Below are positions 1 to 62,938 of a stretch of DNA of 64,000 nt, one piece after another. The DNA is from Enterobacteria phage P922. Both the position numbers and the translations under genes were made by a program. The DNA lies in the sequence record OR999189.1. The stretch is one strand, 5' to 3'. The notes below the pieces were generated by a model. That model saw nothing but the letters and a program-made list of their open reading frames with translations. It had not been told where the DNA came from and ran no database searches. The stretch's first letter is position 1, and each line of letters starts with the position of its first letter.

Positions 1-2178
1 ATGATTATCACCACTGAAAAAGAAACAATTCTTGGCAATGGTTCTAAATCAAAAGCATTTAGCATCACAGCATCTCCTAAAGTATTTAAAATTCTGTCAT
101 CTGATTTGTATACAAACAAGATTCGTGCAGTAGTCCGTGAATTAATTACTAATATGATTGATGCCCATGCACTTAATGGAAATCCTGAAAAATTTATCAT
201 ACAAGTTCCAGGACGATTAGATCCGCGATTTGTTTGTCGAGATTTTGGTCCGGGTATGAGTGATTTTGATATTCAGGGTGATGATAATTCTCCTGGGTTA
301 TATAATTCATACTTCAGTTCATCTAAGGCTGAATCTAATGACTTTATTGGCGGGTTTGGTTTAGGTTCTAAATCTCCGTTTAGTTATACTGATACATTTA
401 GTATTACTTCGTATCATAAAGGTGAAATTCGTGGTTATGTAGCTTACATGGATGGTGATGGTCCACAGATTAAACCTACATTCGTAAAAGAAATGGGTCC
501 AGATGATAAAACTGGTATTGAAATCGTAGTTCCAGTTGAAGAAAAAGACTTTAGAAACTTTGCTTATGAAGTTTCTTATATCATGCGACCATTCAAAGAT
601 TTGGCTATCATTAATGGTCTTGACCGCGAAATTGATTATTTTCCGGATTTTGATGACTATTACGGTGTAAATCCAGAAAGATACTGGCCTGATCGTGGTG
701 GATTATATGCTATCTATGGCGGTATTGTTTATCCTATCGATGGTGTTATTAGAGACCGTAACTGGCTAAGCATTCGCAATGAAGTGAATTACATTAAGTT
801 TCCAATGGGTTCACTTGATATTGCTCCATCTCGCGAGGCTCTTTCACTGGATGATCGTACTCGTAAAAATATTATTGAACGAGTTAAAGAACTCAGTGAG
901 AAAGCATTTAATGAAGATGTAAAACGATTTAAAGAATCCACATCTCCCCGTCATACATATCGTGAATTGATGAAGATGGGGTATTCTGCTCGAGATTATA
1001 TGATTAGTAATTCAGTCAAATTTACGACTAAAAATCTGTCATATAAGAAGATGCAAAGCATGTTTGAACCTGATAGTAAGTTATGCAATGCAGGAGTTGT
1101 GTATGAAGTAAATCTTGACCCTCGACTGAAGCGCATTAAGCAAAGTCATGAAACTTCAGCCGTTGCATCAAGTTATCGTCTGTTTGGTATTAATGCAACA
1201 AAAATTAATATCGTTATTGATAATATTAAAAATCGTGTTAATATTGTCCGTGGATTAGCACATGCGTTAGATGATAGTGAATTTAATAACACTTTGAATA
1301 TTCATCACAACGAACGCCTTCTGTTTATTAATCCAGAAGTAGAATCGCAGATTGATTTGCTTCCTGATATTATGGCGATGTTTGAAAGTGATGAAGTTAA
1401 CATTCATTATTTGTCAGAAATTGAGGCTTTAGTTAAAAGTTATATTCCAAAGGCAGTAAAAAGTACAGCTCCTCGTCCTAAAACTGCTACTGCATTTAAG
1501 TTTGAAATTAAAGACGGGCGCTGGGAAAAAGAGGAACTGTTTACGCTCACATCAGAAGCAGATGAAATTACTGGTTATGTAGCATACATGCATCGTTCTG
1601 ATATTTTCTCTATGGATGGTACTACATCGCTTTGTCATCCATCTACGAATATTTTGATTCGTATAGCTAATCTTATTGGCATTAATGAATTTTATGTTAT
1701 TCGTCCGCTTTTACAGAAAAAGGTAAAAGAACTTGGTCAGTGCCAATGTATTTTTGAAACTCTGCGTGATTTATATGTAGATGCTTTTGATGATGTAGAT
1801 TATGATAAGTATGTAGGTTATTCAAGTTCAGCTAAACGATATATTGATAAAATTATCAAGTATCCTGAACTAGATTTTATGATGAAGTACTTCAGTGTAG
1901 ATGAAGTTTCTGAAGAATATACACGACTCGCTAATATGGTTAGTTCATTACAGGGTGTATATTTCAACGGTGGAAAAGATACCATCGGTCATGACATCTG
2001 GACAGTAACTAATCTTTTTGATGTATTATCAAATAATGCTTCAAAAAACAGTGATAAAATGGTTGCTGAGTTTACCAAGAAATTCCGTATTGTTTCCGAC
2101 TTCATCGGTTATCGCAACTCTTTAAGTGATGATGAAGTTTCTCAAATCGCTAAAACTATGAAGGCCCTTGCGGCCTAA
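1..2178 (+). CDS. rIIA: rIIA protein (lysis inhibition / exclusion, membrane-associated)
   Basis: 725 aa ORF, same length as T4 rIIA; immediately upstream of an ORF beginning MYNIKCLTKNEQAEIVK (rIIB). Confidence 0.9.
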
Positions 2179-2189
2179 TAAGGAAAATT

Positions 2190-3128
2190 ATGTACAATAT
2201 TAAATGCCTGACCAAAAACGAACAAGCTGAAATTGTTAAGCTGTATTCAAGTGGTAATTACACCCAACAGGAATTGGCTGATTGGCAAGGTGTATCGGTT
2301 GACACAATCCGTCGTGTTTTGAAAAATGCTGAAGAAGCTAAACGCTCTAAAGTTACTATTAGCGGTGATATTACAGTTAAAGTTAATAGCGATGTAGTTA
2401 TTGCTCCAGTTGCTAAATCTGACATTATTTGGAATGCATCTAAAAAATTCATTTCAATTACTGTTGACGGTGTAACTTATAACGCAACTCCTAATACTCA
2501 TTCAAACTTCCAGGAAATTCTTAATCTGCTTGTAGCGGATAAGTTGGAAGAAGCGGCACAAAAAATTAATGTTCGTCGCGCTGTTGAAAAATATATTTCC
2601 GGCGATGTTCGAATTGAAGGTGGAAGCTTGTTCTATCAAAATATTGAATTGCGATCTGGTTTGGTTGATCGTATTCTTGACTCGATGGAAAAAGGCGAAA
2701 ACTTTGAATTCTATTTTCCATTCTTGGAAAATCTGTTGGAAAACCCAAGCCAAAAAGCGGTATCTCGACTCTTTGATTTCTTGGTAGCAAACGATATTGA
2801 AATTACAGAAGATGGTTACTTCTATGCTTGGAAAGTAGTTCGCAGTAATTACTTTGACTGTCATTCAAATACTTTTGATAACAGTCCTGGTAAAGTAGTT
2901 AAAATGCCACGTACTCGTGTAAATGACGATGATACACAAACTTGTTCTCGTGGTCTGCATGTGTGTTCTAAATCTTATATTCGTCACTTTGGTAGTTCAA
3001 CCAGTCGAGTTGTAAAAGTTAAAGTGCATCCGCGTGATGTAGTATCAATTCCGATTGATTACAACGACGCTAAAATGCGTACCTGCCAATACGAAGTAGT
3101 TGAAGACGTTACTGAACAATTTAAATAA
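2190..3128 (+). CDS. rIIB: rIIB protein
   Basis: 312 aa; N-terminus MYNIKCLTKNEQAEIVKLYSSGNY matches T4 rIIB as recalled; classic AAGGAAAATTATG start context. Confidence 0.9.
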   Translation: MYNIKCLTKNEQAEIVKLYSSGNYTQQELADWQGVSVDTIRRVLKNAEEAKRSKVTISGDITVKVNSDVVIAPVAKSDIIWNASKKFISITVDGVTYNATPNTHSNFQEILNLLVADKLEEAAQKINVRRAVEKYISGDVRIEGGSLFYQNIELRSGLVDRILDSMEKGENFEFYFPFLENLLENPSQKAVSRLFDFLVANDIEITEDGYFYAWKVVRSNYFDCHSNTFDNSPGKVVKMPRTRVNDDDTQTCSRGLHVCSKSYIRHFGSSTSRVVKVKVHPRDVVSIPIDYNDAKMRTCQYEVVEDVTEQFK

Positions 3129-3140
3129 GGGCTTCGGCCC
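3129..3140 (+). promoter_or_regulatory. intercistronic stem-loop GGGC-TTCG-GCCC followed by GAGG Shine-Dalgarno, no U-run
   Basis: perfect 4 bp stem with UUCG tetraloop 1 nt after rIIB stop; same cassette recurs near 41879 and 58896. Confidence 0.5.
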
Positions 3141-3156
3141 TTAACTGAGGAAAATT

Positions 3157-3351
3157 ATGTTAGGTTATCAAGCACGAGTAAAAGAAGAATACGATCAATT
3201 AATGCTCAAAATTAATGCACTGAGCAAATTTTTAGAAAGCGCAAAGTTTCTAACAGTTAATGCAGTTGAGCAAGAACTGTTACTTTCGCAGTTTATCTCA
3301 ATGAAATCTTATGCTGAATGTCTAGAGAAAAGAATTGCACAATTCAAATAA
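3157..3351 (+). CDS. hypothetical small protein (64 aa)
   Basis: ATG preceded by GAGGAAAAT; ORF followed by terminator hairpin. Confidence 0.5.
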   Translation: MLGYQARVKEEYDQLMLKINALSKFLESAKFLTVNAVEQELLLSQFISMKSYAECLEKRIAQFK

Positions 3352-3354
3352 AAT

Positions 3355-3377
3355 AAGGGCTTCGGCCCTTTTGTTTT
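3355..3377 (+). terminator. rho-independent terminator (GGGCTTCGGCCC plus T-run)
   Basis: GC stem with UUCG loop followed by TTTTGTTTT. Confidence 0.6.
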
Positions 3378-3437: not shown

Positions 3438-3995
3438 ATGCAGAAAACGAATCCGGGGTTACAGAGACTATTTCAGATTCCGACATTTACCCTATCGAAC
3501 AGTGACTTGACTAGTGAAATGAAGGTCAAAATTGTTGATACTGCAAGATACTCTTTAAAACAAAACCCAAATCAGGATAAGGCAGAAGTTATCGAAAGAT
3601 GCCGTATCGCTGTGTACGCAGAGTTTTTTGTAGCAGATTGGCTGAGCGGGTATGTTAACAAAGGTCAAGAAGATGTCGATGATCCGTACACATATGCATG
3701 GGATGTATTGGCGCATCCAAGATACTGCGGGCTTCGTGTAGAAGTTAAGACACATCAAACTGACTCACGTTGGATTTCGGTGACAACAGGATGCAGCGGA
3801 GAGTATCCATATGGTTCTGGAATAAATCTAGGGCCCATTCTAAATCATCAAGTCGCTGACTGTATAATTATATTCAACACTAAAGAAATTCATCCAGGTG
3901 TCATCCAATACACTCCGAAGTTCATCGGTGATAGAGAAGACCTTCGTAAGGTTGTAAGAAAAAGCAACTACAGCGGATGGTATCTTTCCATTTAA
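3438..3995 (+). CDS. denB: endonuclease IV (dC-specific ssDNA endonuclease)
   Basis: 185 aa, same length and genomic position as T4 DenB (between rIIB and ndd). Confidence 0.8.
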   Translation: MQKTNPGLQRLFQIPTFTLSNSDLTSEMKVKIVDTARYSLKQNPNQDKAEVIERCRIAVYAEFFVADWLSGYVNKGQEDVDDPYTYAWDVLAHPRYCGLRVEVKTHQTDSRWISVTTGCSGEYPYGSGINLGPILNHQVADCIIIFNTKEIHPGVIQYTPKFIGDREDLRKVVRKSNYSGWYLSI

Positions 3996-5754: not shown

Positions 5755-5834
5755 TGAGTAATTTCCACAACGAACACGTGATGCAGTTCTATCGTAATAA
5801 TCTTAAAACTAAAGGCGTCTTCGGACGCCAGTGA
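5754..5834 (+). CDS. stp: Stp peptide (26 aa; restriction inhibitor / PrrC anticodon nuclease activator)
   Basis: hand translation [26 protein letters not shown] matches T4 Stp as recalled; TAATG overlap with ndd. Confidence 0.8.
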
Positions 5835-5841
5835 GGAAAAT

Positions 5842-6000
5842 ATGAATATCGCAAAATTATTAGGAGTTATTTCATTTATTTGTTGGATAGTAGCATGTGT
5901 TTTAACTATCTGTATTGATGCCAGCAGTGTGTTTTCGCAAGCTTTAGCTCAGGGTATGTGTGCATATTTAACATTTGTGTTGTTATCTACTAATGATTAA
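5842..6000 (+). CDS. ac: acridine-resistance membrane protein
   Basis: 52 aa hydrophobic ORF directly after stp with GAGGAAAATATG start; T4 ac is about 51 aa at this position. Confidence 0.6.
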   Translation: MNIAKLLGVISFICWIVACVLTICIDASSVFSQALAQGMCAYLTFVLLSTND

Positions 6001-7609: not shown

Positions 7610-7617
7610 TAATTTTA

Positions 7618-7644
7618 GGGAGAGCCTCGGCTCTCCCTTTTTTA
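7618..7644 (+). terminator. rho-independent terminator
   Basis: GGGAGAGCC-TCGG-CTCTCCC followed by TTTTTT. Confidence 0.65.
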
Positions 7645-7659
7645 TTTCAAAATTTTTTT

Positions 7660-7705
7660 CACAAAACGGTTTACAACCAAAGCATACTGTGGTACTATAC
7701 AACTA
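7660..7705 (+). promoter_or_regulatory. T4-type early promoter upstream of motA
   Basis: CACAAAACGGTTTACAACC...GTGGTACTATACAACTATCAACT. Confidence 0.55.
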
Positions 7706-15613: not shown

Positions 15614-15620
15614 AAGAAAA

Positions 15621-15640
15621 AGGGAACCCGAAGGCTCCCT
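15621..15640 (-). terminator. terminator hairpin downstream of gene 35
   Basis: minus-strand GGGAGCC-UUCG-GGUUCCC followed by U-run. Confidence 0.55.
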
Positions 15641-15644
15641 CAGT

Positions 15645-24524: not shown

Positions 24525-24550
24525 GGGGACCCTAGAGGTCCCCTTTTTTA
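24525..24550 (+). terminator. rho-independent terminator after gene 32
   Basis: GGGGACC-CTAGA-GGTCCCC followed by TTTTTT. Confidence 0.65.
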
Positions 24551-24569
24551 TTTCAAAAATTTTTCACAA

Positions 24570-24610
24570 AACTGTTTACATCTCTGTTCTTCTATGGTAC
24601 TATACAACTA
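24570..24610 (+). promoter_or_regulatory. T4-type early promoter
   Basis: TTTTTCACAAAACTGTTTACA...ATGGTACTATACAACTATC. Confidence 0.55.
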
Positions 24611-24874: not shown

Positions 24875-24919
24875 CTATCAAGGGGCTGTCAGGCCCTTAT
24901 TAAAATGAGGAAAATCAAA

Positions 24920-25306
24920 ATGGAAATCGGCAAAAAATATGAGTTAAATCCACATCGTATTAAATCTTTCATTGATATTAGTTCATCAAATGCTAATATG
25001 GTCGGTATCATTCAAGAAAATGGTGGTTGGTTTGAAGTTAAATCAATATCAAGTTTAGATGGCTTTGATTATGTAACCGAAATCATTTGTGCTAATGGCG
25101 AAATCTATTATAATGATGGCATAGGTGATGATTATTTTGAACTTAGTGAAGAAGAGTTTTATTGTTTCCGCGAGTATAAAGAACCGACTTCTGAAGAAGA
25201 TGAAGTCGAAGACAAGATTTCTGGCGTAACAAAAATTCACTGCATTGTAGACGAAAACAATGTAGATGAAATCATTGAACTTTTGCGAAAAACTTTCAAA
25301 AAGTAG
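24920..25306 (+). CDS. hypothetical protein (128 aa)
   Basis: second ATG preferred: TGAGGAAAATCAAAATG. Confidence 0.45.
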   Translation: MEIGKKYELNPHRIKSFIDISSSNANMVGIIQENGGWFEVKSISSLDGFDYVTEIICANGEIYYNDGIGDDYFELSEEEFYCFREYKEPTSEEDEVEDKISGVTKIHCIVDENNVDEIIELLRKTFKK

Positions 25307-32578: not shown

Positions 32579-32583
32579 GGAGT

Positions 32584-32597
32584 GGGCCGCAAGGCCC
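32584..32597 (+). promoter_or_regulatory. stem-loop GGGCC-GCAA-GGCCC between the AAGGAG SD and the denA start codon
   Basis: hairpin sits between SD (AAGGAG) and the first ATG of the denA reading frame. Confidence 0.45.
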
Positions 32598-32605
32598 ATT
32601 TTATT

Positions 32606-40998: not shown

Positions 40999-41029
40999 GA
41001 GGACTCCTTCGGGAGTCCTTTTTTATTTT
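40999..41029 (+). terminator. rho-independent terminator
   Basis: GGACTCC-TTCG-GGAGTCC followed by TTTTTTATTTT. Confidence 0.65.
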
Positions 41030-41044
41030 CCAAAGATTGCACAA

Positions 41045-41085
41045 AGTTGTTTACAGTATGGTTCCTTTGTGATAGTATTATCTTA
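41045..41085 (+). promoter_or_regulatory. T4-type early promoter
   Basis: GTTGTTTACAGTATGGTTCCTTTGTGATAGTATTATCTTACA. Confidence 0.5.
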
Positions 41086-41504: not shown

Positions 41505-41870
41505 ATGAACTACATCAACTTTGAACGTAAATATGTTTCTAACGGTATTGCAGGTTCTATTGATACTATCTGCCTTTGGAAACATCAAAATGGATCAGTA
41601 TGCGAAATTGAACAGTATATGACTCCTAATTACGTTTATATGCGATTTGAAAATGGCATCACGGTTTCAATCACGAAAGAAGGTTCTTCTTTTAAAATCG
41701 CATTAGATGATGATTTTCGTCAACGTGATTTAGGTACCCATCCTTGCTGGAACGGCGTTAATCGTAAGCTTCTGGTTAAAACTTGGATTCGTCATATTCT
41801 GAGTAACAGAGCTAAACCTGAGCATCTTGAAGCAATCTTTGATGTAGTTCTTAACGAATTTGATATTTAA
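41505..41870 (+). CDS. hypothetical protein (121 aa)
   Basis: GGAGAATAAAATG start. Confidence 0.45.
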   Translation: MNYINFERKYVSNGIAGSIDTICLWKHQNGSVCEIEQYMTPNYVYMRFENGITVSITKEGSSFKIALDDDFRQRDLGTHPCWNGVNRKLLVKTWIRHILSNRAKPEHLEAIFDVVLNEFDI

Positions 41871-41878
41871 AATAAAAC

Positions 41879-41897
41879 AGGGGCTTCGGCCCCTTAC
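41879..41897 (+). promoter_or_regulatory. intercistronic stem-loop GGGGC-TTCG-GCCCC followed by GAGG SD
   Basis: same cassette as at 3129. Confidence 0.5.
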
Positions 41898-41910
41898 TGA
41901 GGAAAATACT

Positions 41911-42198
41911 ATGTTTATGACTACTTATTTTGATACCCGCAAAAATTTCTGTGAAGTAGTTTTCTCTAAGGCGCCTAAAGACCTTCCTGCTCATTTGCAG
42001 CCTACCAGTGAATCGATTAAAAACTACGTTAATGTAGTCTGCCCTTTAGAGTTCCGTACTGTAAATGGGCGTGATACTCTAGCTATCACTAAACTCAATC
42101 GTGAAATTGACATTGACCCTTCAATTGCGCATGAAATTAATATTTCTGACATTGGTGGTGGTAATGTTAAATCGCACGGATTTCAGATGAGGTTCTAA
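41911..42198 (+). CDS. hypothetical protein (95 aa)
   Basis: ATG after hairpin and GAGGAAAATACT; the longer track ORF would read through the hairpin. Confidence 0.4.
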   Translation: MFMTTYFDTRKNFCEVVFSKAPKDLPAHLQPTSESIKNYVNVVCPLEFRTVNGRDTLAITKLNREIDIDPSIAHEINISDIGGGNVKSHGFQMRF

Positions 42199-45611: not shown

Positions 45612-45796
45612 AAGCTTACTTAGAAACAATTGTCGTTGCTCAAAAAGAAGGTGGAGATGTTTCTACTTCTGTATCACAAATCGTTCTTGAATTTGTAGAT
45701 GCATATGCTTATAATAAATTTACAGAAACATTTGATGCCTATGAAAAAGGTCCGAAGTTTGAAATATACCGTACTCTCTTACCACTAGATTATTAA
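45608..45796 (+). CDS. hypothetical protein (62 aa)
   Basis: ATGA-coupled to ligase; followed by hairpin. Confidence 0.4.
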   Translation: MKAYLETIVVAQKEGGDVSTSVSQIVLEFVDAYAYNKFTETFDAYEKGPKFEIYRTLLPLDY

Positions 45797-45812
45797 AGGC
45801 CTTCGGGCCTTT
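45796..45812 (+). terminator. stem-loop AAAGGCC-TTCG-GGCCTTT (weak terminator or RNA stability element)
   Basis: perfect 7 bp stem with UUCG loop; A/T-rich after. Confidence 0.45.
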
Positions 45813-45848
45813 AATTTTATAAATAGAATAAACACTAGAGAGGATATG

Positions 45849-47942
45849 ATGGAACTCATTACAGAATTATTTGACGAAGATACTACTCTTCCGATTACAA
45901 ACTTAAATCCAAAGAAGAAAATACCGCAAATTTTTTCAGTTCATGTTGATGACGCAATTGAACAACCAGGCTTTCGTTTATGTACCTATACATCTGGAGG
46001 TGATACTAATCGCGATTTAAAAATGGGCGATAAAATGATGCATATTGTTCCTTTTACATTAACTGCTAAAGGTTCAATTGCTAAATTAAAAGGTCTCGGT
46101 CCAAGCCCAATTAATTATATCAATTCAGTTTTTACTGTTGCAATGCAGACGATGCGTCAGTATAAAATTGATGCCTGTATGCTCCGTATTCTTAAGTCTA
46201 AAACTGCTGGTCAAGCTCGACAAATTCAAGTTATTGCTGATAGACTTATCCGTAGTCGTTCAGGTGGCAGATACGTCCTTCTTAAGGAACTCTGGGATTA
46301 CGATAAAAAGTATGCATATATTCTTATACATCGCAAAAATGTATCACTAGAAGACATTCCAGGAGTTCCGGAAATTAGTACCGAGCTCTTTACTAAAGTT
46401 GAATCGAAAGTCGGCGATGTTTATATCAATAAAGATACTGGTGCTCAAGTAACTAAAAATGAGGCAATTGCAGCATCTATTGCGCAAGAAAATGATAAAC
46501 GCTCTGACCAAGCTGTAATCGTTAAAGTTAAAATTTCCCGTAGAGCAATTGCGCAAAGTCAATCATTAGAATCTTCTAGATTTGAAAGCGAATTATTCCA
46601 GAAGTATGAATCTACTGCAGCTAATTTCAATAAACCTGCTACTGCTCCTTTAATTCCAGAAGCAGAAGAAATGAAGCTTGGAATTAATTCATTAGCTTCT
46701 AAAACTAAGGCAGCAAAAATTATTGCTGAAGGAACTGCAGATGAACTTCACTATGACTATAAATTCTTTTCAAAAAGTGAGGTTAATGAAGTTTCTGAAA
46801 AAATTAAAGATGTAATTCTTAATGCGATTAAAAATGAACCAACTACTTCAATAAAATGTTTAGAGAAATACGCAGCAGCTGTTAATAAATTCTTTGAAGA
46901 ATACAAAGATAAATGGCTTGATAAACATAATAAAACCCGTAAAGGACAGCCAGATGAAGTCTGGGAAGAAATAACTAAAAATTCCTGGAACGCAGCAAAA
47001 ACTAAATTCCTCAAACGAATGATTTATAGTTTTTCTGGAATTGGTGCAGGTCCAATGATTGATATTACCATTGCACGCGATGGTTCTAAATATACTCCAT
47101 CGCAAAAGCGCGGCATTAGAGAGTATTGTGGATCAGGATATACTGACATCAATAATCTTCTTTTAGGCCGCTACAATCCAGAACGATATGATGTAATGAG
47201 TGAAAAAGAAATTGAATCTGCTATAAATAACTTAGATTCAGCTTTTGAAAATGGTGACCGTATACCAGAAGGCATTACAGTTTATCGTGCTCAAAGTATG
47301 ACTGCTCCTATATACGAAGCACTAGTTAAAAATAAAGTGTTCTATTTCAGAAATTTTGTATCTACTTCTTTAACTCCTATCATTTTTGGACGTTTTGGAA
47401 TTACACATGCTGGTATTGGTCTTTTAGAACCAGAAGCTCGTAATGAATTGACAGTTGATAAAAATGAAGAAGGAATAACTATTAATCCAAACGAAATAAG
47501 AGCGTATAAAGAAAATCCTGAATACGTTAAAGTTCAAATAGGATGGGCAATTGATGGAGCTCATAAAGTTAATGTTGTATATCCAGGAAGTCTCGGAATA
47601 GCAACAGAAGCTGAAGTTATTCTACCGCGCGGATTGATGGTCAAAGTTAATAAAATAACTGATGCTTCTAATAATGACGGAACAACATCTAATAATACAA
47701 AACTCATTCAAGCTGAAGTTATGACTACAGAAGAACTCACCGAATCAGTAATTTATGATGGAGACCATTTAATGGAAACTGGTGAAGTAGTTGCAATGAC
47801 AGGTGATATTGAAATAGAAGACAGAGTTGACTTTGCATCATTTGTTTCATCAAACGTTAAACAGAAAGTAGAATCATCTCTTGGAATTATTGCGTCTTGC
47901 ATAGATATTACAAACATGCCTTACAAGTTCGTTCAAGGATAA
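45849..47942 (+). CDS. alt: Alt ADP-ribosyltransferase (packaged, modifies host RNA polymerase)
   Basis: 697 aa from second ATG; MELITELFDEDTTLPITNL... matches T4 Alt; C-terminal R / STS / EAE ART signature. Confidence 0.85.
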   Translation: MELITELFDEDTTLPITNLNPKKKIPQIFSVHVDDAIEQPGFRLCTYTSGGDTNRDLKMGDKMMHIVPFTLTAKGSIAKLKGLGPSPINYINSVFTVAMQTMRQYKIDACMLRILKSKTAGQARQIQVIADRLIRSRSGGRYVLLKELWDYDKKYAYILIHRKNVSLEDIPGVPEISTELFTKVESKVGDVYINKDTGAQVTKNEAIAASIAQENDKRSDQAVIVKVKISRRAIAQSQSLESSRFESELFQKYESTAANFNKPATAPLIPEAEEMKLGINSLASKTKAAKIIAEGTADELHYDYKFFSKSEVNEVSEKIKDVILNAIKNEPTTSIKCLEKYAAAVNKFFEEYKDKWLDKHNKTRKGQPDEVWEEITKNSWNAAKTKFLKRMIYSFSGIGAGPMIDITIARDGSKYTPSQKRGIREYCGSGYTDINNLLLGRYNPERYDVMSEKEIESAINNLDSAFENGDRIPEGITVYRAQSMTAPIYEALVKNKVFYFRNFVSTSLTPIIFGRFGITHAGIGLLEPEARNELTVDKNEEGITINPNEIRAYKENPEYVKVQIGWAIDGAHKVNVVYPGSLGIATEAEVILPRGLMVKVNKITDASNNDGTTSNNTKLIQAEVMTTEELTESVIYDGDHLMETGEVVAMTGDIEIEDRVDFASFVSSNVKQKVESSLGIIASCIDITNMPYKFVQG

Positions 47943-47945
47943 ATC

Positions 47946-50003
47946 ATGGAACTTATTACAGAATTATTTGACGGCGCTTCGGCGCCGGTTGTTAACTTAA
48001 ACCCGAAGCATAAAATACCTCAAATTTTTGCTATTCAAGCAGGTGAAGAAAGCGTGCTTCCTGGATTTAGATTTTGTACATACACCTCTGGCGGTGATAC
48101 AAATAAAAACGTTAAGCCAGGCGATAAAATGATGCATATCGTAATGATAGGTGTCAATGAAAAGCTATCATTAGTTAAACTTAAAAACTTAGGTGGAAAT
48201 CCAATTGGTGTCATTAATGCGGTTTTTGATACTGCTCTTCAAACAATGAAACAGTATAAAATTGATGCATGCTTATTCCGCGTACTAAAGAGCAAAACAA
48301 ATGGAGCTGCTCGTCAAATGCAAGTTATTGCCGACCGTTTAGTACGTACTAAAGGAGCAGGTCGATATGTTCTTTTAAAGGAAATCTGGGACTATGATAA
48401 GAAATATGCATATATTATGGTTTACCGCAAAAATGCCAATTTAGAAGACATTCCAGGTGTACCTCCTATTTCAACTGAGTTATTCACAAAGGTTGAATCA
48501 AAGGTTGGTGATGTTTATGTAGATGTTAAAACAGGTAATGCTGTTCCTAAAGCTGTTGCTGTTGCTGCTTCTATTGCTTTAGAAAATGATAAGCGCACAG
48601 ATCAAGCTGTAATTCAGAAAACTAAAATTAGTCGTCGATTAGCAGCACAAGCTCAATACTCTACTGTCGATGCTTCACTTCAGGGTGATAGCTTCGCCGC
48701 TAAGAAATATCAAGAGTTTGAATCTAAAGTTCCGGTATATAAAGCAGAAGGACCAATGAACTCCGGCGTTATTCAGGTTGGTTCAAACTTCAGCAAAGGA
48801 GCTATCGGTGGTATGAGGAGTGCTTCTCGTTTTAAATCTAGTGATTATGAACTAGAAAGCTTCCGAAATCATATTGCATTGGCCCATGCGCGTTTACGTG
48901 ATCCATCTATTAAATTACAGAGCGATATAACATATCAAGGTTCTCAAGAATATTTAAAGAATAAAGAATTTTTTGATTATAAAACTGATAAAATTTTAAG
49001 CGATCTTGCTGACATTAATATTTCTAATAGCTTTGATGTTATTAAGAAAATTGTCAATGATTTAGTTAAAGGTTCTAAAGCCACGCCAGACGAAAAGGTA
49101 GCTATTGTTCAATTTGTCATGAATGGCATTTATAAATTGATTAATGAGTCTGCTTCTCAAGCGTATGAATATGCAAGTACTGAAGTACCCCCAAAAGGAT
49201 TAACTCAGGCTGAGTCTGATGTAATTGAAGATTATTGCGCGGATTCATATGTTGAAATGAACTCGTTCCTTTTAGGTAAACCGGATTCTACTCGTGAAGA
49301 ATACATGGAACGAGCTATTAAACACATCGAGACAATGGATTCTGCCTTTGCCAAAGGATCAGTTCTTCCTCCAGGAACTACGCTTTATCGTGGACAAGAA
49401 GTTACCTTTAAAACTTTACGTCATAATATTGAAAATAAAATGTTCTATTTTAAGAACTTCGTATCCACATCGCTTAAACCAAATATCTTCGGTGAGTATG
49501 GTAAAAACTATATGGCTCTAGATGATTCCAGTACAGTATTTTCTGGTGAAGGAGAAGGTTCAGTTGACGCAGAAGATTTGATGCATATGGGCAGTCATTC
49601 TTCTTATGCGAATGAAGATGCTGAAACTAGCGTGGGTATGGTAATTAAAGGAGCTGAGCGAATCAAAGTTATCGTTCCGGGTCATTTATCAGGATTTCCA
49701 TCAGAAGCTGAAGTTATTTTACCACGTGGAATTTTGCTGAAGATTAATAAAGTGAGTACGTACATGATGAAAGAAACTGCTTATAACAAGTATTTAATCG
49801 AAGGCACAATCGTTCCTCCTTCTGAACAATTAGAAGAATCGGTATATGATGGCGATCATCTGATGGAAACTGGTGAAGTTCGTCCAATGGCTGGGTTTAA
49901 TCAATTCCTTGTAGAAGAATCAAAAGAAGAGGAAAACGAAGTTTCTCAAATCTTAGCTTCTTTGGTTAACATCAACGGAATGTCTAAAAAGTTCAAGATG
50001 TAG
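47946..50003 (+). CDS. Alt-like ADP-ribosyltransferase paralogue
   Basis: 685 aa; N-terminus MELITELFDGASAPVVNLNPKHKIPQIF parallels Alt; conserved FVSTSL and SEAEVILPRG motifs; middle region divergent. Confidence 0.75.
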   Translation: MELITELFDGASAPVVNLNPKHKIPQIFAIQAGEESVLPGFRFCTYTSGGDTNKNVKPGDKMMHIVMIGVNEKLSLVKLKNLGGNPIGVINAVFDTALQTMKQYKIDACLFRVLKSKTNGAARQMQVIADRLVRTKGAGRYVLLKEIWDYDKKYAYIMVYRKNANLEDIPGVPPISTELFTKVESKVGDVYVDVKTGNAVPKAVAVAASIALENDKRTDQAVIQKTKISRRLAAQAQYSTVDASLQGDSFAAKKYQEFESKVPVYKAEGPMNSGVIQVGSNFSKGAIGGMRSASRFKSSDYELESFRNHIALAHARLRDPSIKLQSDITYQGSQEYLKNKEFFDYKTDKILSDLADINISNSFDVIKKIVNDLVKGSKATPDEKVAIVQFVMNGIYKLINESASQAYEYASTEVPPKGLTQAESDVIEDYCADSYVEMNSFLLGKPDSTREEYMERAIKHIETMDSAFAKGSVLPPGTTLYRGQEVTFKTLRHNIENKMFYFKNFVSTSLKPNIFGEYGKNYMALDDSSTVFSGEGEGSVDAEDLMHMGSHSSYANEDAETSVGMVIKGAERIKVIVPGHLSGFPSEAEVILPRGILLKINKVSTYMMKETAYNKYLIEGTIVPPSEQLEESVYDGDHLMETGEVRPMAGFNQFLVEESKEEENEVSQILASLVNINGMSKKFKM

Positions 50004-50358: not shown

Positions 50359-50380
50359 ATGGGGACCGAAAGGTCCCCAT
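50359..50380. terminator. bidirectional terminator between convergent + and - transcription units
   Basis: ATGGGGACC-GAAA-GGTCCCCAT with A-run on one side and T-rich on the other. Confidence 0.6.
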
Positions 50381-58653: not shown

Positions 58654-58896
58654 TTAAAAGCTTTCTTCTACTTCATCGTCTGAATCTTCTAATTCAGCTC
58701 TTTTTCCTGCCAAAGCATCTCTAACTGAGATGTCATCAGTATCTTTTAATTCAGTTTCTTTAACTCTTTTCTTATAATAAGCTTCAAGTTCTTCTAAACC
58801 TTCTAATGTTTGGCATGATGCAATTTTACCCATAAATTCATCAATAGAAGCTTCATAAAGAAATTGTTTAAATTCTAGTAACATCTTTTTCTCCAA
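58654..58896 (-). CDS. UvsW.1-like acidic protein
   Basis: 80 aa directly downstream of uvsW on the minus strand. Confidence 0.6.
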   Translation of the reverse strand: MEKKMLLEFKQFLYEASIDEFMGKIASCQTLEGLEELEAYYKKRVKETELKDTDDISVRDALAGKRAELEDSDDEVEESF

Positions 58897-58911
58897 AGGG
58901 CCGAAGCCCTT
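58896..58911 (-). promoter_or_regulatory. intercistronic stem-loop (GGGCUUCGGCCC) between uvsW and downstream ORF
   Basis: overlaps uvsW stop; followed on minus strand by GGAG SD. Confidence 0.45.
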
Positions 58912-62912: not shown

Positions 62913-62938
62913 AAGGGGCTTCGGCCCCTTTCTTCATT
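62913..62938 (+). terminator. rho-independent terminator after hoc
   Basis: AAGGGGC-TTCG-GCCCCTT followed by T-rich tract. Confidence 0.6.

Follow-up and report, generated by a model that had tools for sequence, protein, structure and literature searches.

CUUCGG hairpins at gene boundaries of a T4-like phage: members of a long-known class that occur with and without a U-run

The 64,000 nucleotides of Enterobacteria phage P922 analysed here (OR999189.1; hereafter the window) contain short UUCG-loop hairpins that stand between the stop codon of one gene and the Shine-Dalgarno sequence (SD) of the next. Some of these hairpins are followed by a U-run and others are not, and the question raised by the second kind is what a very stable hairpin does directly in front of a gene if it lacks the tail of a terminator. 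The initial annotation had described the U-less form, at 3129, 41879 and 58896 (minus strand), as a recurrent cassette of stop codon, hairpin, GAGG and ATG. It had listed versions with a U-run as terminators at 3357, 24525, 40999 and 62913, and had suggested that the hairpin-only form is an RNA stability barrier or a processing determinant.

A 2-kb piece around the hairpins is 99.5 % identical to Escherichia phages vB_EcoM_G29 and G9062 and matches 528 phage records, nearly all of them Tequatrovirus, which identifies the window as part of a T4-like Tequatrovirus. The plus strand of the window is the complement of the T4 map (2190 corresponds to T4 168,903, the rIIB start, and 54,197 to T4 118,904), and the gene span runs from rIIA through early genes, tail-fibre genes, gene 32, nrd and alt to hoc. 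Two introns of T4, the td intron with I-TevI and the one in nrdB, are missing, as seen from alignment gaps of ~1,018 bp (~27535) and ~600 bp (~32075), and the window has no Rfam match to a group I intron. Two tandem alt-like ORFs, 45846..47942 and 47946..50003, are found where T4 has one alt gene and alt.-1/-2 fragments, and positions 45846-50003 align poorly with T4 (69-79 % identity). A Rfam scan of the whole window returned no match at gathering score to any curated covariance model. The relatives used for comparison are T4-like contigs in IMG/VR, which were gathered through the conserved neighbouring proteins of each junction because the denB.1 protein as a query retrieved only 5 near-identical loci.

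The hairpins share a 12-mer, GGGCTTCGGCCC, which has five exact copies, at 3129-3140, 3357-3368, 41881-41892 and 62916-62927 on the plus strand and at 58898-58909 on the minus strand. With up to two mismatches there are 7 copies, compared with 0.53 +/- 0.67 expected, and none of 100 shuffles reached 7. A scan of the window for CTTCGG with flanking complementarity yielded ten stable CUUCGG hairpins, which start at 3126, 3355, 5814, 40999, 41879, 45792, 47972 and 62913 on the plus strand and at 58911 and 15641 on the minus strand. All C(UUCG)G sites feature CTTCGG at the centre, a closing C-G pair and complementary arms. The stems have 6-10 bp and predicted energies of -8.8 to -14.9 kcal/mol, and 8 of the 10 hairpins lie between genes or overlap a stop codon. 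The minimum-energy fold predicted in context is the hairpin itself, with the SD and AUG unpaired, and its z scores against shuffles are modest (-1.0 to -3.1). ORF maps place the UUCG in the local mRNA sense in all ten hairpins, on either strand. Since a feature of the DNA only would be indifferent to orientation, this invariant sense orientation marks the hairpins as an RNA-level feature.

Six sites have a hairpin followed by an SD in place of a U-run. Four of them are UUCG hairpins and two have other loops in the same layout.

2162..2176, plus strand: AGGCC-CUUGC-GGCCU, non-UUCG, in the last rIIA codons (KALAA), with the stop codon at 2176-2178; AAGGA and then the rIIB ATG (2190) follow
3126..3143, plus strand: UUCG hairpin TAAGGGCUUCGGCCCUUA between rIIB and denB.1; the rIIB stop TAA (3126-3128) is the stem base; no U-run; GAGG at 3147-3150, 3 nt past the stem; denB.1 ATG at 3157
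5814..5829, plus strand: UUCG hairpin GGCGUCUUCGGACGCC in the last codons of stp (26 codons; GGC GUC UUC GGA CGC = GVFGR); the stop TGA (5832-5834) overlaps the GAGG (5833-5836) of the next gene, whose ATG is at 5842
24881..24898, plus strand: AGGGGCUGUCAGGCCCUU, non-UUCG, between frd.3 and frd.2; GAGG 8 nt later, ATG at 24920
41879..41894, plus strand: UUCG hairpin AGGGGCUUCGGCCCCU between 30.7 and 30.6; 30.7 stop at 41868-41870, 8 nt before the hairpin; no U-run; GAGG at 41899-41902, 4 nt past the stem; 30.6 ATG at 41911
58896..58911, minus strand: UUCG hairpin AAGGGCUUCGGCCCUU between uvsW and uvsW.1; the uvsW stop TAA (58912-58910) overlaps the stem base; GGAG at 58894-58891, 1 nt past the stem; uvsW.1 ATG at 58884

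At these six sites the 8 nt past the stem hold at most 3 U (1-2 at the four UUCG sites, 1-3 over all six), the SD begins 1-8 nt past the stem, and there is neither a promoter match nor room for -35 and -10 elements. The upstream stop codon lies in or beside the stem at five of the six. In T4 the junction of frd.3 and frd.2 reads AGGGGCU-AUCA-AGCCCCU, so the structure is kept there. The hairpins at 2162 and 5814 are part of coding sequence, which accounts for some of their conservation. The hairpins themselves encode the C-terminal residues of RIIA (KALAA, 2162-2178) and of Stp (GVFGRQ, 5814-5834), and the hairpin of relatives that have stp tolerates a G-U pair as well as the synonymous replacement of UUC by UUU. 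The denB.1 initiation region, GAGGAAAAUUAUGU (3147-3160), has AAAAUUAUGU in common with the rIIB RegA operator AAAAUUAUGUAC (PMC3014915), and by this likeness denB.1 may be repressed by RegA.

The U-tailed CUUCGG hairpins of the window are listed below with the gene 32 terminator, which has a different loop, and with the one CUUCGG hairpin that lies well inside an ORF.

3355..3370, plus strand: UUCG hairpin AAGGGCUUCGGCCCUU then UUUUGUUUU, past denB.1; terminator form
15620..15641, minus strand: CUUCGG hairpin GAGGGAGCCUUCGGGUUCCCUU and U-run between genes 35 and 36, then the late promoter TATAAATA
24525..24543, plus strand: gene 32 terminator GGGGACC-CUAGA-GGUCCCC and U6, then an early promoter; not UUCG
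40999..41020, plus strand: CUUCGG hairpin GAGGACUCCUUCGGGAGUCCUU and U-run, past gene 30.9; early promoter 29 nt downstream; a PeSL-type unit
45792..45815, plus strand: UUCG hairpin AUUAAAGGCCUUCGGGCCUUUAAU with the alt.1 stop in the stem; the late promoter TATAAATA for alt directly after
47972..47987, plus strand: UUCG hairpin CGGCGCUUCGGCGCCG within the second alt-like ORF (47946..50003), 26 nt past its ATG
62913..62930, plus strand: UUCG hairpin AAGGGGCUUCGGCCCCUU then UCUUCAUUUU, past hoc; terminator form

The U-tract of an intrinsic terminator, taken as about at least 5 U in 8 nt, is present at 3355, 40999, 62913, 15641 and 24525. Three hairpins, at 7617, 24525 and 40999, have a tail with 7 U in its first 8 nt and a T4 early promoter at +29 to +31. 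Of the 8 nt past the stem, 4 are U at 45792 and 6 at 15641, and both of these hairpins have TATAAATA at +2 to +6. The 50359/50380 and post-hoc hairpins have at least 5 U of 8 and stand at transcription-unit ends. The listed features reveal that the U-tail tracks a downstream promoter or the end of a unit, and an independent consensus scan agrees in that it flags none of the U-less sites in the sense direction. This indicates one hairpin type whose tail is tuned to the need for read-through. The sole exception to this two-form split is the denB.1 hairpin at 3355, which has a U-run yet no recognisable promoter downstream. Transcription has to pass the hairpins in front of an SD, since the genes behind them lack promoters. 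These hairpins resemble intrinsic terminators in being G+C-rich hairpins right past a stop codon, and the U-run forms at 3355, 40999, 62913 and 15641 fit that description fully; the hairpin-then-SD sites, however, have no U-tract.

Several points of the initial annotation stand on these data. The hairpins at 3129, 41879 and 58896 are genuine, as each contains an exact copy of GGGCTTCGGCCC and the number of copies is far above that in shuffled sequence, and the U-run is indeed absent at all three (1-2 T in the 8 nt past the stem; a sense-strand terminator scan flags none). The layout of stop codon, hairpin, SD and ATG is seen in the ORF maps at the three sites, except that the SD at 58896 is GGAG and not GAGG. 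Its U-run terminators are a mixed group: 3357 and 62913 are UUCG hairpins, 40999 has the CUUCGG loop on a different stem (GAGGACUCC), and 24525 has the loop CUAGA. Its list did not include the UUCG hairpin before an SD at 5814, the U-tailed hairpins at 45792 and 15641 (minus strand), the hairpin inside an ORF at 47972, or the non-UUCG hairpins at 2162 and 24881.

Three units of the PeSL type, with stem-loop, U-run and early promoter, are located at 7617-7700, 24525-24610 and 40999-41080. Two of these have near-identical spacers (TTTTTTATTTCAAAA.TTTTT..CACAAAAC.GTTTACA) despite different stems and loops (CUCG, CUAGA, UUCG). Additionally, a bidirectional terminator, AUGGGGACC-GAAA-GGUCCCCAU, lies at 50359-50380 between the convergent genes 54 and alt.-3. 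It has U-rich tails on both strands, and its loop reads GAAA or, on the opposite strand, UUUC.

Since 1988 the CUUCGG hairpins found between T4 genes have been part of the textbooks, and it is from them that the UUCG tetraloop became a model RNA. The window hairpins are members of this long-known T-even class of C(UUCG)G mRNA hairpins, and because the class has been known between T4 genes since 1988 the present finding is a correct rediscovery and not new. It was in the intercistronic regions of T4 that the C(UUCG)G hairpin was originally described (Tuerk et al. 1988, PNAS 85:1364; as summarised in PMC8948821). In that summary, which cites Tuerk 1988, CUUCGG hairpins are mostly intergenic and especially abundant in T4, one of them stabilises gene 32 mRNA, and a role in mRNA stability is already proposed for the T4 hairpins (PMC8948821). 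The T4 hairpins of Tuerk 1988 are alike in their C-G-closed CUUCGG loops, short G+C-rich stems and mostly intergenic positions, and some of them are terminators while others are not. The class is further characterised by complementary arms of 2-8 bp, by unusual thermal stability and by reverse-transcriptase stops; for the window hairpins, an indirect hint of such stability is the loss of bases from these stems in the old T4 record described below. Nothing essential differs between that class and the window hairpins; what is added here is the explicit split into U-run and U-less forms and the comparative evidence. The 2010 review of T4 post-transcriptional control (PMC3014915) contains neither UUCG hairpins nor a class of hairpins 5' of the SD, which suggests that no test of what the read-through form does has ever been made. 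What that review does cover are the inhibitory structures of e, soc, 49 and I-TevI and, for genes 25 and 38, the split-SD hairpins.

The split-SD hairpins of T4 genes 25 and 38 (PMC3014915) are likewise small stable hairpins in T-even initiation regions that occur in close T-even phages only. They sit between the SD and the AUG and shorten the spacing, whereas the window hairpins are 5' of the SD at all six sites. One other structure of the window, at the junction of nrdB and denA (32579-32602, plus strand), reads GGAG-UGGGCC-GCAA-GGCCCA-UUUUAUU-AUG, with a GNRA-capped hairpin between GGAG and the denA start. The spacing there is 23 nt, or 7 nt with the hairpin looped out; the hairpin has a predicted energy of -18 kcal/mol (z = -4.2) and is identical in T4. 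It is the only one that resembles the split-SD type of genes 25 and 38, or else its SD is held in G-U pairs.

Comparison with relatives reveals selection on the structure of the hairpins. Eleven distinct sequences (the window, T4 and T4-like IMG/VR contigs) keep the stem at the 30.7 end, in the forms GGGGC/GCCCC, GGAGGC/GCCUCC and GGGC/GCCC. Of its cells, 98 % are paired, two positions have double changes from G-C to A-U, and 3 of 500 shuffles reach the observed covariation. The loop changes from UUCG to GAAA (GNRA), UUUG or UUCA, and in one relative the hairpin past rIIB is capped by CUUG. A stem that is kept while the loop swaps among stable tetraloop classes points to selection for the stability of the hairpin and not for a sequence read by a protein. 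The hairpin past rIIB also differs in its tail. More distant relatives have GGGGACUUCGGUCCCC followed by UUUUUCUUU or UUUCUUAU, the terminator form; in T4-type phages this junction has the U-less form, GGGCUUCGGCCC with UUAACU after it. The strength of the U-run is therefore tunable at a single junction.

The presence of the hairpins varies as well. Only the three closest contigs carry the hairpin between uvsW and uvsW.1; in about 45 further T4-like contigs uvsW is coupled directly to uvsW.1 (UGAggaaacuAUG, or an overlap AUGA or UAAUG) without a hairpin, so it is not essential. The post-ndd hairpin is found only where stp is present, and elsewhere ndd runs directly into the next gene. The absence of the hairpin from most relatives at the uvsW junction, and past ndd where stp is missing, indicates that its benefit is small or lineage-specific. 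At two junctions the hairpin is kept with the upstream gene while the downstream gene is different (post-rIIB in L081-83; post-30.7 in L130, L131 and L138, where GAGGAAAAU is kept alongside the hairpin). In L010, genes 30.8 and 30.7 are deleted, the deletion ends just 5' of the hairpin, and the hairpin stays with the downstream gene. The stop-hairpin-SD-ATG layout also occurs in unrelated viral contigs of 46-48 % GC. Two otherwise T4-type contigs (L038 and L041, 779-860) have a different uvsW C-terminus, followed by AT-rich sequence and a different hairpin, GAGCCCAGAAUCGGGCUC, in place of the UUCG hairpin and uvsW.1.

The most probable explanation of the U-less hairpins, at about even odds (roughly 0.5), is that they are read-through elements which act as barriers to 3' exonucleases in polycistronic mRNA, perhaps with slight attenuation. 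One very stable type of mini-hairpin would serve the phage as punctuation, and its tail would decide the effect. At the end of a unit, or where the next gene has its own promoter, hairpin and U-run would form an intrinsic terminator. Where the next gene relies on read-through there would be no U-run, RNA polymerase would pass, and the hairpin would stay in the polycistronic mRNA. After a cut further downstream it would halt 3'-to-5' exonucleases (PNPase, RNase II, RNase R), so that the upstream cistron would outlast the downstream one; a small attenuation could occur in addition. The barrier role is suggested by the stability-directed selection described above, by the known behaviour of stem-loops at mRNA 3' ends and by the literature, in which delayed-early T4 RNA is reported to need protection from nucleases (PMC2988021). 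Against it speak the short stems (5-7 bp, about -8 to -12 kcal/mol) with their modest z scores, the absence of the hairpin between uvsW and uvsW.1 in most T4-like phages and past ndd where stp is missing, the share of protein coding in the conservation at 2162 and 5814, and the exception at 3355. What the data show is the class to which the hairpins belong, their restriction to the sense strand, the link between U-run and context and the selection on structure; the barrier role is a proposal built on these.

In the form of an analogy, the barrier would be comparable to that of bacterial intercistronic elements. REP elements in E. coli operons are intercistronic stem-loop stabilisers that are proposed to block 3' exonucleases and to protect the upstream cistron. 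The phage hairpins are alike in being stable hairpins within polycistronic mRNA for which an exonuclease block is proposed. They differ in that their sequence is unrelated and in that they are much shorter, a single tetraloop hairpin, and the effect here is proposed by analogy.

The closest alternative, which is unlikely but has several points in its favour, is that the U-less hairpins are weak or leaky intrinsic terminators or pause sites, at which 2-3 U would release some polymerases and produce a fixed step-down in expression. The hairpin type is the same as that of the true terminators of the window, the homologous hairpin past rIIB has a U-run in relatives, and the annotators of G9062 called the rIIB/denB.1 and stp hairpins putative transcriptional terminators. 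The tails speak against it: there are 1-3 T in 8 nt across the six sites, none of which the sense-strand scan flags, and the stem at 5814 is directly followed by AGUGAGG, with no U at all right after the stem. Furthermore, five of the six sites have the stop codon in or beside the stem, and there a polymerase-coupled ribosome would block folding of the hairpin. The interpretation given in the initial annotation is borne out in part. That the hairpin-only form is not a plain terminator, as the initial annotation had proposed, is upheld by the missing U-tract and by its presence only where the downstream gene is promoterless. A leaky terminator is plausible alongside the exonuclease barrier, as the two are compatible and not exclusive.

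A more doubtful reading regards the hairpins as evolutionary leftovers or recombination joints, a promoterless version of the PeSL at points where gene modules are swapped, with a small present function in RNA. PeSL cassettes (Arbiol 2010, Comeau 2014) are similar in that a stem-loop stands beside an SD and ATG at the edges of small genes that vary, and PeSLs and 'degraded' PeSLs have been described in T4/PST (PMC4122927). They differ in having a -35/-10 promoter between stem-loop and SD, which the hairpin-then-SD sites do not have and which is present at 7617, 24525 and 40999. The distribution among relatives is consistent with a joint: the uvsW/uvsW.1 hairpin is a lineage-specific insertion, the stp module ends in a hairpin and is absent as a block elsewhere, and the different genes downstream of the kept hairpins past 30.7 (with GAGGAAAAU) and rIIB, like the L010 deletion that ends just 5' of the hairpin, are of the kind that a joint would give. 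An element acting at the DNA level, however, would not need UUCG on the sense strand in 10 of 10 hairpins, and neither compensatory changes in the stem nor swaps between stable tetraloops would be needed by a DNA joint. The common sequence is only about 12-30 nt, and none of the breaks in synteny between the window and T4 coincides with a hairpin. In its more specific form, which is also doubtful, the U-less hairpin together with the GAGGAAAAU ribosome-binding site would be a portable promoterless relative of the PeSL, a joint where T-even phages insert, delete or swap small genes. The uvsW.1 junction, the stp module and the alternative genes after 30.7 and rIIB would then be examples of it, and its stability as RNA would let the joint sit harmlessly inside operons.

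It is improbable that the hairpins tune translation of the downstream gene, whether as a shield of the ribosome-binding site, as a standby platform or by uncoupling it from the terminating ribosome. Such a role is consistent with the position of the stem, which ends 1-8 nt before the SD at all six sites and which the terminating ribosome must melt at five of them, with the unpaired SD and AUG in the predicted folds, and with the direct stop/start coupling at uvsW/uvsW.1 in relatives that have no hairpin. However, the predicted energy to open the SD-to-AUG region is equal with the hairpin and with the hairpin deleted (2.5 versus 2.7 and 2.9 versus 2.9 kcal/mol at the two sites where the calculation was usable, as the test window overlapped the stem at the other four), and shuffling the hairpin bases worsens it by only about 1 kcal/mol. 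The SD spacing is not conserved, ranging from 2 to 10 nt among relatives, and the same hairpins serve as terminators with no adjoining ribosome-binding site. The term 'recurrent cassette' in the initial annotation is too strong. That the hairpin is found right before the SD is most simply put down to the very short intergenic spaces, as a compact genome forces this closeness on any intergenic hairpin, and the distance from hairpin to SD varies from 1 to 10 nt across the sites and relatives. The proximity to the SD is probably a by-product and does not represent a functional coupling to the ribosome-binding site.

A further reading, in which the hairpins are one-way antisense terminators whose upstream A-rich run supplies the U-run on the opposite strand, is very improbable. 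The terminator scan flags 2162, 3126, 5814 and 41879 as terminator-like on the antisense strand only; it flags neither 58911 nor 24881, however, and the A-run is weaker in L017-19. On the antisense strand the loop would be CGAA, which is not a special tetraloop, and the fold would be about 1 kcal/mol weaker; UUCG, moreover, is invariably in the sense orientation. The count of upstream A is barely above that of the true terminators (a mean of about 4.5 versus 3.6 of 8), and the A-runs are weak and vary among relatives.

RegB cuts GGAG in the SDs of early genes, with the consensus GG*AGRAYARAA, and needs GGAG/U and an unstructured A-rich 3' context, secondary structure being protective (PMC3014915). 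That the hairpins guide a specific endonuclease such as RegB or RNase E, a link made in the initial annotation, can be set aside as most improbable: although the uvsW.1 site has GGAG only 1 nt past its stem (58894), the SD is GAGG at the other three of the four UUCG sites (3147, 5833 and 41899) and AAGG in relatives, which leaves RegB without support from its motif, structure is reported to protect against it, and the loop change from UUCG to GAAA argues against sequence-specific recognition.

The same hairpins also affect the sequence record of T4. In comparison with the window, NC_000866 is missing 1-2 G/C bases in these stems (AAG--CTTCGGCCC, AAGG-CTTCGGCCC and GGGCTTCGGCC-TTTT), with gaps that correspond to window 58896-58911 (T4 about 114,186), 3127-3142 and 3355-3370. 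The gap at uvsW coincides with the annotation of uvsW and uvsW.1 as one fused ORF of 587 aa. In KJ477684, the re-sequenced 'wild' isolate of T4, the hairpin is complete and does not differ from that of the window, and the missing bases in the old record are consistent with gel compression. Judged from these alignments, the missing bases are hairpin-induced sequencing errors and the fusion of uvsW and uvsW.1 is false.

The GenBank/RefSeq record of G9062 (L001, NC_054920.1) labels the hairpins at 948-965 and 3632-3647 as 'putative transcriptional terminator' and leaves stp unannotated. These two hairpins correspond to window 3126-3143 and 5814-5829, both of the U-less form, and the labels are probably over-calls by a terminator predictor. 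As a discovery the window hairpins carry little weight, since the class has long been known. Their meaning for T4-like phages is of a practical kind: annotation pipelines, as in the case of phage G9062, label U-less hairpins as terminators, which is probably wrong, and these hairpins lie behind base-calling errors in the T4 reference record, the false uvsW/uvsW.1 fusion included.
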